DNA of 64,000 nt from a virus (lineage: Duplodnaviria > Heunggongvirae > Uroviricota > Caudoviricetes), in IMG/VR virus record IMGVR_UViG_2718218452_000012; one strand, written 5' to 3'. A program made the position numbers. Of the stretch, positions 47,801 to 53,800 are shown in pieces. Numbering within the stretch: the stretch's first letter is position 1; every line of letters begins with the position of its first letter.

Positions 47801-50800
47801 GCCAGCGATGATGGCGAGATTTCGCGACCGAAAGAACCCAACTGGACCGCATGGGCCAACGACGTGCGCACAATGCGGATGCTGGATGGCAGAACTCACA
47901 GACAAATTTGTGAAATGTTTGGTCGGGTGCAGCGGGATCCATTCTGGGTAAAAAATATCATGAGTCCGTCAAAGCTTCGCGAAAAATGGGATGAACTGGT
48001 TATCCGCCTGGGGCGTTCGTCTGTACAGCGTTGTGTGAATCATATTTCTGAGCCGGATACCGAAATTCCGCCGGGCTTCAGGGGGTAAGTGTTAATTTCT
48101 GGTCATGAGGTAATTTTCAGGAGGGCTTGTGGCAAAAGTTTTTACACAAGAAGAGCGGGAAAAAATTAAAGGGCAGGTTGTTGAACTCGTACGCCGGAGT
48201 GGGCGTGAGACGTTACGGCAACTGGAAGTCAAGACAGGTGCGACAAGATATCTGATGAGCGTTCTCGCAAGAGAGCTGGTTGCCAGCGGCGATGTATACA
48301 ACTCTGGTTACGGGTTATTCCCGTCTGAACAGGCGCGTAAGGACTGGCAAAATGCCCGTAAAAAGCTCTCAAGGGCAAAGCTGAAGGAACCATCTGCGGT
48401 TGATCCGGACCTTATCTGGTCATTACCTGACGGAGAAATACGTCGCTACGACAGGCGTCAGAACATAATCTGTCGCGAGTGCCGGAAGAGTGAAGTTATG
48501 CAGCGCATACTAGCATTCTATCAGGGAAATGCTCGATATTTATTGAAGTGATGAGATTAAAGTTTATTAGTTCAGATATTGATTGGCTCTTTTGTGGAGT
48601 AGGGTAGAGTTAGTGTGTTTGTCTGCTTGGTGCCAGCAGCGGATATGTTTAACAACAGAAAGCATTCAGCATGGTTAGTGGATTTGCAAAGTGGATTAGG
48701 ATTTGAGAAACTTTGATGAAGTTGTAAAGCTTGTTTCTATAAAAATAGAAATTTAACTAATAGTTAAACACACCTCCAGCTTCATTGAAAAGGATTATTA
48801 GCTATGATTGATCCACTTATTAGAAACTTACAGAGTGATATTGCACTACTCCAGCTTTATATCGCGCAACGCAAACAGGCAGGCTTTCATGACATGGAAA
48901 GAATAATTGAGTCATTGACCATCTTTATGTTTCGCGCGCTGAAAATGGGTGAACTGGTAAACATGAATCAGATTAAAGTTAATTTTCCCGCCATTGATTT
49001 AGCTGATAATAAAAACATGATAGCAGTTCAAGTTACTACGAATGCAAGTCCAGCAAAAATTAAAAAAACTATCGAATCTTTTGAGAAAATAAATGAAATA
49101 GGAGAGAGTCTGAAAGATAAATACTCTACTTTATATATTTTTGGTTTTTGTAAAGCCTCAAGATACCTAACTCCAAGTTATTGTAAAATAATCGACCCCA
49201 GCTATTTCGTGAATGAACTTTGCGATAAAGCAGATGAAGATATGGTCCAGGATATGATTGACGCCATTCGACGCCATCATGATTATACATCATTACATCC
49301 ATGGAGTGATAAAGATTCACTCGAAATTATACTCAATATTATTAATCGCAATGCAATAAAACATCGGATGAGTTGCGAAGGCAGTCTGTCTGATATGCTC
49401 ACTGGTTTAAAAGAAATTAATGAAGTAATTACAAAAGGAACAATTCAACGTAAGCAACGTTCAAAATCGATATCTGACTTCAAAGATCAAAGCATGGTGA
49501 AATTTATGAGAGGTGTAATGGATGATTTGTCTGTTATTCAAGCCATAGTGAACAAATCTAAAGTTAACCAAGGTGATATGGTTTATATAAGCCATGAAGA
49601 TATGATTAATATTGATAAATTAAAAGCTAAAATAGCAAGTGATTCATCAGAGATTGCAAGGCTAAATAATATTGATATAACACTAAATGTTGTTGATTTA
49701 TAATTGTCGATTTAGCAAAACAGAGAATGCTTTGAAAGTTTCACCGAGAAATATTTATTGTGAACCTCCTTATTGTTTATCGACTTTTACTCTCCGCTCA
49801 TTGCAGTACTGTCGGAGAAGGCTACTATGTACAAGAAGCAGCTAACATAAGCGAGCATCACTATTGATATTAGGAAGAGTATATAAAAACTTCATGCTGA
49901 ACCTTACAAAAGTAGGTAAACCGGCAATGGCCTAAGTGGCAGGGTCATGTTGATCCGGCACTGCCGAGCTAATAATTAACAAGCAAATCACTCTTTCTAA
50001 TAATTTGTTGAAATAAACTAAATATGTATATGTTTACCAACAACCACATATGAACTACCTGCTTTGCTCCATGATTTTATTATTTCTAAATTATTATCTG
50101 AGCATATTTTACTTACAGTATCCACATCTAATAAACCATAGTAGAAAGCATTGCGAGAGTTTTGGTATATATACCCATGCAAATGTTTAATACCGCTCTC
50201 GTACCTCTTGAAATAAGAACTTTTGTATTGATTGACAATCAGTGCTTCACCATCACTCTTTAATAATTCTCTAATCGCACTGAGGACTTTGTGAATTGTG
50301 GATTCACATGGAATTGCGGAAAGCACGTTTGCGCAAAGTATGAAATCATAATGATTTGTTATTTTATCTATATTTTCATAAGAAACAATATTAGCATTCT
50401 TATAGTTATTTATCACGTAATCTGGAATCGTGGTTTGTACACCTCTGATAATTTGCACTCTTTCTAGTTGTCTTCTGGAATCTAAAAATGTCACAGTTTC
50501 AAATTTATTTACTAATTGTTCTGAATATCTAAGTTTTCCACATCCAAAATCAAGGGCATTGCCATTTTTATTAGTGCTTTCAATCTGTTTACAGAGATAG
50601 TTAGATGGCATAGTGTGCGGTTTCGCTGCATTTTCTGAACGTATGTTTATTCCATTTATTTTGTAATTCAAAATCAACCTCGTTTAAAAAATATTGTTAT
50701 TGTTAAAGAATTCTTTTATTTTGCTATCAGGTATTTGTCTTACTTGGCTTTCTGTTCTTGGTTTAACTGATGCTATGAAAATAAGGAAGTCAAATGCGAC

Positions 50801-53800
50801 AAGAGAAATAATCCACAACCAAAGATTAATTAAAGAGCCAGTAACAGAGAATATATTTGTTAATTTGGCGATACTTATTATTAAAATAGTAACAAATGCG
50901 ATTACTGTATGTTCAAAGAAAACCCAAAAGTAATAAACTTTGTTCCAGAAAAGTTCAACGTAATGTTTGTCTTTTAACTCTTTAACTTCTGGGTAATACA
51001 GTTTACTCATTACCTTGTGAGATTCATCAGTAGTTAATTTTCTCGTAACGCCTGCAATTTTTGCTAATGGTTTAATAATTAAATGACTATCCCACATCTT
51101 CCTTATTCCAATAATTTTTGCTACATTATTATGTAGATCTAAAGCTCCACTAATTACTGACCAAAAAACTGAAGATGCAATTGGTAATATGCCAAAGGTT
51201 AATATCCATTTAATAAATTCCTCGTAGTCTTTAACGGGGGGGATATACTTGGCATTAATGCCAACCAATGGCATGTAGCCATAAATGACTAATGATAGGT
51301 AAAATATAAATGTAGTAATAAAAGTCGCCTTATGGAGCATAGGCAACATTTCATTATAACTCTTTGGTGGTTCTAACATTTTACTCTCCAAACACTCAAA
51401 AAAAAGCTAATCTTCTATAATAACGAAATTCAGCTGGCACAATTAAAGATTAATTGCCACCAATTTCTTGATTTTATAATTTTATCTAAATGTTTTTGAT
51501 TAATCTAGTCCTAAAAGAAACCTACTGCATAAATATTTATGCTGATGACCCACTCCCTGTTCGTTAACACATAGCAACGTTAGTAATGCATCCTAAGTGA
51601 TCAATATTTTTGCTAGCTTCATCTGCTCGCTCAAAGGGAACTATAATGTTGGCTTGCGTGTGACTTGGCATGTTTAAAGAAGTGCTGGTGGTGACTGGTT
51701 GCTGTTTTCCATTTCCACAGAACAAAATCATAGAAACTATACCCAGTAGTTGTATTGAATCACTGACGAGACAGCCTCATATTTATCAGGACTGGTGTAC
51801 GTCCAATACAGGAGGTTGTGGTGCTGGTTCTCAAATGTGCGCTGGCTATTGCTGCTGTAATGGCAATTTATTGTCTTGCTGTTGTTCTTATGGATCACCT
51901 TTCTGATTGATTTCATATTGGCGAGGTAACGGTAGTTAAGTAGAATTGCTGCGGGTGCTTGAGGCTATCTGCCTCGGGCATCAACACCAAAGGCAGATAG
52001 AGAAAAGCCCCAGTTAACATTACGCGTCCGGCAAGACGCTTAACATTAATCTGAGGCCATATCTATGCTCTACACACGTAGGTTAGCCTCTTACGTGCCG
52101 AAAGGCAAGGAGAAGCAGGCTATGAAGCAGCAAAAGGCGATGTTAATCGCCCTGATCGTCATCTGTTTAACCGTCATAGTGACGGCACTGGTAACGAGGA
52201 AAGACCTCTGCGAGGTACGAATCCGAACCGGCCAGACGGAGGTCGCTGTCTTCACAGCTTACGAATCTGAGGAGTAAGAGACCCGGCGGGGGAGAAATCC
52301 CTCGCCACCTCTGATGTGTCAGGCATTCTCAACGCACCCGCATTTAACCCGCTTCGGCGGGTTTTTGTTTTTATTTTCAACGCGTTTGAAGTTCTGGGCG
52401 GTGCCGGAATAGAATCAAAAATACTTAAGTAGCGCGCAGGGATAAGAGGGATGGACCCCGAACAGGGGAGTGCTATTTATCTGGAAGGATTCTGTTGATG
52501 AAAATCGAAGAATTACGTGAAATTTTTACTGAAGATGGCCTCTATACTGTGCGCGTTGAGAATGGTGCTATTGTCAGTCACTGCCGTATTAAATGTTTAC
52601 AATCTAAACAAAGGAAGAGTGGAGCTGCGTTAATTTATTTTGTGGATGAACTTGTGACAGATGGTTTTATTTTGCGTGAAAATGAATTTGTCACATCATT
52701 GCAGTCTCTGAAAGAAGCTGGGCTTAAGGCTGGTTTTTCTGCTTTTGAAGATGAGTAAATTCATCTACAATTCAGCACAGGGCTGAACCCCTGTTGAGTA
52801 ACACTGTGCCACCGGAGAAAACCGATGGCGCAAAATTCCAGACCACACAATTCTGATAATTCAGCCGTCTTTGCCAGCAGGCACGGGCGGCGTTCTCATG
52901 CATTCAAATATGACTGGTACCAGCATGACCCATGCACTGAAGAACAGGCCGAATGGCTGATTCAGAACTACCGCAGGCGTGGGTATGAGTTTAGGAAAGC
53001 CCTCAGCCTCGATTATCGTCACTGGATAATCTACGTCAGGCTCCCTTATTCCGAACGCCCACCGCGTCCGTCCCGCACATTCCAGCAACGCATCTGGAGG
53101 TAACGTGCGGGTATTACTTCGACCTGTTCCGGTACCGGAACTTGGGCTGGTGGTCCTTAAGCCGGGCCGTGAATCCATGCAGGTATTTCATAACCCTCGA
53201 GTGCTGGTGGAGCCGGAACCAAAAAGCATGCGCGGTCTGCCGTCCGGAGTCGTTCCTGCCGTTCGCCAGCCGCTGGCGGAGGATAAATCATTACTGCCAT
53301 TTTTCAGCGATGAGCGGGTGATTCGTGCTGCTGGCGGCGCTGGTGCACTGTCTGACTGGCTGTTGCGTCATGTCAAATCCTGCCAGTGGCCTCATGGTGA
53401 CTATCATCACAGTGAAACCGTCATACATCGTTACGGTACCGGCGCGATGGTGTTGTGCTGGCACTGCGACAACCAGCTGCGTGACCAGACCTCTGAATCA
53501 CTCGGGCAACTTGCTCATCAAAACCTGTCAGCATGGATGATTGACGTCATACGCCATGCAATGAATGGCACACAGGAGCGGGAATTATCTCTGGCTGAAT
53601 TATCCTGGTGGGCGGTCCGCAATCAGGTGGCGGACGCGCTACCGGAAGCTGTATTACGTCGTTCACTGGGGTTGCGTGCGGAAAAAATCCGCTCCTTGTA
53701 CCGCGAAAGCGACATCGTACCGGGAGAGCAGACCGCCACCAGCATACTGAAGCAGCGCACAAAAAATCTTGCGCCGTTGCTTCACACCCACCAGCCACAG

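Follow-up and report, generated by a model that had tools for sequence, protein, structure and literature searches.

What does the AT-rich insert between the replication genes and the hok/nin region of IMG/VR virus record IMGVR_UViG_2718218452_000012 (Caudoviricetes) carry, and might its genes act against phage? The window – the whole stretch of 64,000 nucleotides that was analyzed – belongs to a prophage whose host is E. coli, a 3.9-kb stretch being 100% identical to several complete genomes. An earlier reading based on the letters of the DNA (the sequence-only reading) had described a low-GC block with three open reading frames (ORFs): one for a 299-amino-acid (aa) protein, facing two for a membrane protein and a methyltransferase dependent on S-adenosylmethionine (SAM). 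Both the drop in GC and the ORFs were recovered: GC content is 0.341 across 48552-52060, dips to 0.30-0.35 along the ORFs and is 0.31-0.33 within the three genes, compared to 0.483 and 0.503 in the flanks and 0.479 in the window overall. RefSeq names the genes "SMEK domain-containing protein", "class I SAM-dependent methyltransferase" and "hypothetical protein", and places the trio in a lambdoid prophage of the dicA/dicB/dicC (Qin/Rac) type, with a DUF977 gene on one side and hokD on the other.

The island is made up of two separately mobile modules, often inherited as one block: a gene for a SMEK-domain protein, and the gene pair ymfE-ymfD (hereafter ymfED) encoding the membrane protein and the methyltransferase. 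As a whole the locus is best explained as a composite cassette, lodged in a recombination-prone prophage slot, that would bring together two modules of anti-phage type, each able to move alone; the prospects of this explanation being correct we judge to be evenly balanced.

Two modules in one block

Of 5426 complete E. coli genomes, 151 contain the SMEK gene and 151 the pair; for both, identity is at or above 99% in 146 genomes and 80-90% in the other 5. The genes nevertheless read best as two modules, since each is also found by itself, both at comparable and at greater divergence. A SMEK copy 83% identical to that of the window is found without the pair in Pectobacterium brasiliense, where all that the locus has in common with the window is 48615-49706: the SMEK gene plus ~190 bp upstream, ending at the stop codon. 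The pair, for its part, stands without SMEK in the e14 prophage of K-12, in P2-like prophages, at loci L052-L054 and L056, and in all distant lineages.

These distributions bear directly on the possibility that all three genes form one system, with YmfE-YmfD sensing or regulating and the SMEK nuclease as effector, or the reverse. The equal genome counts are what such a system might produce, and diverged versions of the convergent trio, with 80-91% of amino acids identical, do recur in other prophages: at L022/L023, where replication is of the RepO/DnaB type, at L048-50, beside an integrase, and at L047, L051 and L055. One diverged block aligns unbroken, its spacer included. Yet the occurrence of each module by itself, together with their convergent transcription, argues for separate units, and phage-mosaic inheritance of a 3-kb block explains the linkage without shared function. 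We therefore regard a single three-gene system as distinctly improbable.

A stand-alone SMEK protein

The 299-aa protein had been thought to lack any motif that could be assigned with confidence. This does not hold: it matches the SMEK_N domain in both Pfam (2e-22) and NCBIfam (1e-30) and passes the family cut-offs (PF21941, 79.9 bits against 27; NF033859, 105.1 bits against 30), and the family match is found in all 31 of 31 aligned full-length relatives. An exhaustive search returned 558 representative proteins, about 60 of which have the full 290-320-aa architecture; a single-protein SMEK scan of species genomes gave 4 loci. In the literature SMEK figures as a nuclease effector, both in short Argonaute systems and in short Lamassu. 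In larger relatives, SMEK is the N-terminal domain of NACHT-TPR, NACHT-pentapeptide and PIN-TPR-GreAB-C proteins.

The N-terminal domain has the core residues and the fold of the Mrr-like PD-(D/E)xK nucleases. Residues E36, N55, D65, Q76 and K85 are invariant in the 31 full-architecture relatives, and the family profile aligns over residues 4-156 (2e-24) with the solved Mrr domain of Kordia jejudonensis ("Mrr-APAZ pAgo"), which has E36, D65, Q76 and K85 in common with the 299-aa protein. Catalysis by the SMEK protein is assumed here by homology to its Kordia counterpart.

The remaining ~140 residues are predicted to form a four-helix bundle that has no match in the family libraries. Its conservation is nonetheless marked: in the same 31 relatives A184 and K221 are invariant, and D169, R182 and E192-G193 nearly so. 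An R182-x4-H187 arrangement on the bundle is mostly conserved, although several members have D, N or C in place of the histidine; as to a reading of the domain as HEPN, neither a HEPN profile nor a solved HEPN structure was among the matches.

The neighbors of the Pectobacterium copy are SMODS with S_4TM, ArdC and IS66. The SMODS nucleotidyltransferase and S_4TM effector (L025, 7050-8981) lie directly downstream of the SMEK homologue and make up a minimal CBASS-like pair.

The ymfED pair

The convergent genes are homologues of K-12 ymfE and ymfD: in BLASTP comparisons the membrane protein is 60% identical to YmfE (1e-108) and the methyltransferase 68% identical to YmfD (2e-113). That the pair could not be mapped to a named system, as the sequence-only reading put it, is correct as far as the defense systems catalogued in PADLOC-DB 2.0 are concerned, none of which it matches, but the genes themselves have long been named in e14. 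In K-12 the e14 ymfD/ymfE region has been listed among promoter islands associated with H-NS; further mentions of ymfE and ymfD in the literature are gene lists. The e14 ymfE is divergent from lit, with a 457-bp intergenic region between the two (L011, 5696-6589).

A conserved association between the two genes in other genomes, proposed earlier as a check, was found throughout. More than 17 independent contexts were examined, and all of them keep the order ymfE-ymfD and the close spacing, the methyltransferase gene following the membrane gene by 0-60 nt or overlapping it. These contexts include P2-like prophages of Enterobacter and Providencia (after ogr), an element bearing a relaxase and a reverse transcriptase (RT), loci in Neptuniibacter, in a Vibrio cholerae cassette array with ParDE/Phd modules and in Microbulbifer (hhalign probabilities of 100, 100 and 96.7 for the upstream protein), a Marinobacter array rich in insertion sequences (IS) and toxin-antitoxin genes, a Chloroflexota contig, a Colwellia element with recombinases and split Mg-chelatase fragments on its flanks, a locus next to type II restriction-modification genes, and one whose methyltransferase had been shortened by gene calling. 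On a distant phage contig the pair immediately precedes TerL and portal; the hhalign E is 9e-42, and the methyltransferase is 29% identical. An N-terminal TIR_2 domain (Pfam 2e-26) precedes the YmfE-like part in a 336-aa protein on JGI metagenome contigs (L017, 2893-4737; L018), where the methyltransferase encoded next is 33% identical; no other domain fusion was seen in the family. Because order and spacing are conserved and the two proteins diverge in parallel (from 99/99% identity to ~19/29%), there is strong evidence that YmfE and YmfD act together and that the unit is cargo of mobile elements.

At some of these loci uncharacterized genes recur beside the pair. In the Enterobacter P2-like prophage a 300-aa protein (L002, 9058-9960) is encoded in the same orientation as the CI repressor, and in Microbulbifer two proteins of 565-575 aa lie upstream of ymfED (L015, 725-4146); a Pfam search of these neighbors gave no match. 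The Enterobacter protein was considered as a possible relative of SMEK, and comparison showed no relation.

The methyltransferase measures 219 aa as an ORF and 217 aa in RefSeq, and its gene follows that of the membrane protein on the minus strand after a gap of 6-12 nt. It matches Methyltransf_12/23 in Pfam (2e-8) and, weakly, TehB, above the cut-off (24.4 bits against 20.4). Across 30 homologues there is no change in the SAM motif LDFGCGKLRY or in the family motifs ENAAKP and NVLSAIP. As the sequence-only reading had it, this is a class I enzyme of a kind other than DNA methyltransferases: the (D/N/S)PP(Y/F/W) motif and the cytosine-C5 motifs are absent, the motif IV position reads CANVLSAIP, and only generic small-molecule or protein methyltransferase families are matched, which does not make YmfD part of a restriction-modification system. 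A reading in which YmfD shields the host DNA from SMEK was accordingly dropped, the modules being separate as well. Searches of solved structures with the single YmfD-like sequence found nothing; the family profile gave weak matches throughout, to Rickettsia protein-lysine methyltransferases (2e-4), TehB (0.011), PmtA (0.03) and UbiG (0.045), a set that ranges over protein lysines, metalloids, lipids and quinones as substrates.

The YmfE-like protein was predicted to have four transmembrane (TM) segments, and four hydrophobic segments are indeed found, at about residues 22-46, 59-84, 152-177 and 187-211. A TTG start would give 50684-51391 and 235 aa; the ATG at 51379 is the better start. The AlphaFold2 (AF2) model is confident (pLDDT 92.9, pTM 0.87). 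The N- and C-termini are rich in Lys and Arg, and TM2 and TM3 are joined by a helical insert of 65 residues; by the positive-inside rule, both termini and the insert are probably cytoplasmic. Residues H87, R97, Y133, W156 and E160 are invariant in 74 homologues, and D101, D141 and H143 nearly so; the invariant positions map to the insert and to the cytoplasmic start of TM3, which suggests a functional site at the inner-leaflet interface. Searches of Pfam, NCBIfam, PHROGs and PADLOC gave no match to the protein, and no solved structure related to it turned up.

The 16-bp stretch GCATAAATATTTATGC at 51527-51542 is a perfect palindrome. It lies some 150 bp upstream of the ymfE-like start, at the margin of the conserved block, resembles an operator and may have a regulatory role; the island encodes no regulator.

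IS insertions (IS3, ISVsa5, IS1) are present in several copies of the island (E. coli genome hits H1, H8, H18, H20 and H107; loci L033 and L044), and in at least two cases the ymfE-like gene itself is split. This suggests occasional inactivation.

Borders and surroundings of the island

Coordinates of the island and its parts are collected in Table 1. Homology to the backbone of phage Tritos stops at 48654 and starts again at 51623, while a diverged copy in a different prophage gives a single unbroken alignment, 83% identical, over 48632-51545; the edges thus fall at ~48632/48655 on the left and 51545/51622 on the right. The insert proposed over 48552-52060 is therefore real, and its width was overdrawn, the stretch 51623-52060 being backbone common to Tritos. 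The slot itself, between the replication module (DUF977) and hok/nin, is variable: Tritos and HannyBb hold other genes there, between the DUF977 ("Ren-like") gene and mok/hok. Among deposited phage genomes none was found with the cargo described here.

Table 1. Features of the island and its borders (positions in the 64,000-nucleotide window).
Feature	Position	Strand	Basis and remarks
AT-rich accessory cassette (island proper), two modules	48632..51622	.	Tritos homology breaks; alignment to diverged copy
Left border gene, DUF977 protein, last of the replication module	48129..48551	+	Pfam DUF977 2e-30; RefSeq
Upstream region moving with the SMEK gene, presumed own promoter	48615..48803	+	Pectobacterium comparison; promoter presumed
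SMEK-domain protein, 299 aa	48804..49703	+	Residues ~1-156, Mrr-like PD-(D/E)xK nuclease domain; ~157-299, four-helix-bundle domain
Spacer between convergent genes, 314 bp	49704..50017	.	Kept within block in diverged copy
ymfD-like class I SAM-dependent methyltransferase, 217-219 aa	50018..50677	-	68% identical to K-12 YmfD
ymfE-like 4-TM inner-membrane protein, 231 aa	50684..51379	-	ATG at 51379, GGAG Shine-Dalgarno; RefSeq agrees
Upstream region of the ymfE-like operon	51380..51545	-	Inside block common to diverged copy
Right border, hok/sok type I toxin-antitoxin locus	51953..52277	+	sok RNA 51953-52127 (Rfam RF01794, 114 bits); mok/hokD ORF 52065-52277; RefSeq annotates hokD

No canonical terminator, hairpin or inverted repeat was found in the spacer between the convergent genes, and promoter-like sites were no commoner than in shuffled sequence.

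Immediately to the right of the island a 70-aa mok ORF contains hokD, and the hok/sok stretch is common to many Shiga toxin (Stx) and lambdoid phages. In K-12 Qin, relBE lies just upstream of hokD; the hok/sok junction may therefore be a general landing site for addiction and defense cargo. A possible small peptide had also been assigned to the island. RefSeq has no gene between the ymfE-like gene and hokD, and this part is shared backbone by hok/sok, so the peptide finds no support. A Cys-rich 78-aa ORF at 51670-51906 (…CAGYCCCNGNLLSCCCSYGSPF), upstream of hok/sok, unannotated in RefSeq and mostly within the stretch shared with Tritos, is probably not a gene.

The early region is duplicated and inverted within the window (37491-45000 and 45916-48551), with DicF RNA copies at 42674-42725 (+) and 44822-44873 (-) and DUF977 genes at 38865-39284 (-) and 48129-48551 (+). 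The other copy had been described as without an equivalent of the island; its slot after DUF977 is in fact occupied, by an IS transposase (37491-38831; helix-turn-helix and rve domains). Further Rfam matches in the window, at 28757-29141, 31651-32043, 55423-55669, 3342-3540 and 56443-56615, comprise two cspA-type thermoregulator leaders, three tRNAs downstream of the Q antiterminator gene, IS009 and STnc100.

Possible functions and their alternatives

If the modules are of anti-phage type, the SMEK protein would be a stand-alone nuclease acting by abortive infection or in the manner of restriction, its helical domain most likely holding the nuclease inactive until a cue arrives. YmfE and the soluble YmfD, tightly and probably translationally coupled, would work jointly on the cytoplasmic side of the inner membrane, where YmfD may modify YmfE itself or a small molecule associated with the membrane. 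Expressed from the lysogen, the pair would most likely serve to exclude an incoming phage or to mount an abortive response to it; under laboratory conditions it is probably silenced by H-NS. An anti-phage reading is plausible for SMEK, given the precedent set by its domain, and plausible for ymfED, given its contexts and the TIR fusion. That ymfED is a widespread but so far unrecognized two-gene conflict system of mobile elements, consisting of a 4-TM sensor or effector in the inner membrane and a dedicated SAM methyltransferase, and that the stand-alone SMEK is a single-gene defense as well, is a tentative proposal about which we are rather doubtful.

A number of observations weigh against an anti-phage role, plausible as it is for the island, and it draws only on gene context and domain identity. 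The genomic context is suggestive, not statistical. The active site of SMEK reads E-D-Q-x-T...K, which is not the classical (D/E)xK. YmfE has no relative of known function, by sequence or by solved structure, so that what it does can only be inferred; the weak solved relatives of YmfD (small-molecule, lipid and protein-lysine methyltransferases) fit roles outside defense equally well. A K-12 ymfD knockout has been reported to grow normally and to show no specific role in N6-methyladenosine (m6A) of mRNA. Finally, PADLOC-DB 2.0 (2023) holds no model that covers YmfE, YmfD or the full-length SMEK protein: none of 74 YmfE family members gave a match (the best E, 0.0018, being to Csx23 in 3 members), and the YmfD-like protein gave only mad2 at 1e-4, over the generic methyltransferase region.

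Three other accounts need to be set beside the anti-phage reading. A serious rival, albeit an unlikely one, takes ymfED for a module that methylates small molecules, lipids or the envelope, laid out like tehAB and conferring a metabolic, detoxification or surface trait on the lysogen (lysogenic conversion). The operon does resemble tehA-tehB, and the methyltransferase, which exceeds the Pfam cut-off for TehB, has weak profile matches to TehB, phosphatidylethanolamine N-methyltransferase and UbiG; the polar residues conserved in YmfE lie at the cytoplasmic membrane interface, as would be expected of a site for a lipid or amphiphile, and traits of this kind are frequent on integron cassettes and phage morons. 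The likeness to TehB weakens, however, at the level of the NCBIfam equivalogs (28-29 bits against cut-offs of 218 and 303), and YmfE, with no Pfam match, is unrelated to TehA; moreover the TIR fusion and the company kept by the pair – Lit, SMEK, restriction-modification, toxin-antitoxin and RT genes – lean toward conflict systems.

The presence of the pair among ParDE and Phd/YoeB cassettes in integron-like arrays, and of hok/sok next to the island, could be cited in favor of a toxin-antitoxin or addiction pair, in which a membrane toxin, YmfE, is held in check by YmfD, and a compact, tightly coupled two-gene cassette would suit such a role. We consider this very unlikely, because the K-12 ymfD knockout is viable (although silencing by H-NS could mask toxicity); in addition, the catalytic motifs are all kept over long divergence, which is unusual for a mere antitoxin, and in some copies the membrane gene appears to be disrupted by IS. 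Hardly credible, lastly, is the notion that the island is decaying, functionless DNA of horizontal origin. It is AT-rich and probably silenced, and some copies bear IS insertions; but the three ORFs are intact in ~146 near-identical copies, dN/dS relative to the diverged copies is 0.08-0.28 for all three genes, indicating purifying selection, and the families are deeply conserved, with confident AF2 models. Decay is thus already contradicted by the data on selection and conservation.

Significance

Both gene families were already annotated and ymfED are named genes of K-12, so that the island does not count as categorically new. None of the papers and databases reached described the stand-alone SMEK architecture, the depth and strictness of the ymfE-ymfD coupling on mobile elements, or the TIR-fused variant. 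Should ymfED prove to exclude or otherwise counter phages, two long-standing y-genes of K-12 would acquire a function, and a copy of such a system would have sat beside lit in the laboratory strain all the while. Anti-phage defense would then include a system that relies on the methylation of proteins or small molecules at the membrane, a chemistry that, to our knowledge, belongs to no described defense system. The stand-alone SMEK would be the smallest setting of an effector domain otherwise studied only in Argonaute and Lamassu complexes, and for this reason a convenient model for how the nuclease is switched off and on. If neither module protects from phage, the island is ordinary prophage cargo and the finding amounts to a corrected annotation. 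The island is a good experimental lead, not a discovery.

Comparison with known systems

The SMEK/Mrr-APAZ partner of short prokaryotic Argonaute (pAgo) systems, as in Kordia jejudonensis (PDB 26bh), has the same N-terminal nuclease domain, with shared E, D, Q-x-T and K. It is joined, however, to APAZ and accompanied by an adjacent Argonaute, whereas the SMEK protein of the island has neither and continues into its own 140-residue four-helix bundle. The PADLOC model Aga_REase is covered only at positions 9-143 of 463, and the neighboring genes are DUF977 and ymfD-like, which does not amount to a short pAgo system. LmuA of short Lamassu and the STAND/NACHT proteins share with the island protein a layout in which an N-terminal SMEK effector precedes a regulatory or sensor part; unlike them, it is without LmuB, LmuC, NTPase or repeats and represents a minimal single-gene form. 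Neither the island nor the flanking DNA encodes LmuB or LmuC, and PADLOC gave no match to Lamassu.

Like ymfED, tehA-tehB consists of a membrane-protein gene followed by one for a soluble class I SAM methyltransferase, and YmfD has a weak match to the TehB family. TehA is a larger, SLAC1-type channel. YmfE, in contrast, has four TM segments and its own fold, and matches no family; since the equivalog thresholds for TehB are missed tenfold, ymfED does not class as TehAB, and nothing ties it to tellurite. At the level of the whole locus, the island resembles the moron and defense hotspots of P2 and lambdoid phages, being a sharp-bordered, AT-rich insert in a slot of differing cargo; unlike the known cargo of such hotspots, its genes match no catalogued system.

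The e14 genes ymfE (b1138) and ymfD (b1137), also prophage cargo, have the same order, membrane gene first, and the same tight spacing as the pair described here. The e14 pair sits at the end of that element, by lit and int, whereas the island pair occupies the junction between replication and nin genes; the neighboring gene is divergent in e14 and convergent in the island. Lit and the SMEK protein are unrelated, yet both pairs adjoin a single gene for a candidate or proven abortive-infection factor: the protease gene lit in e14, and SMEK here.

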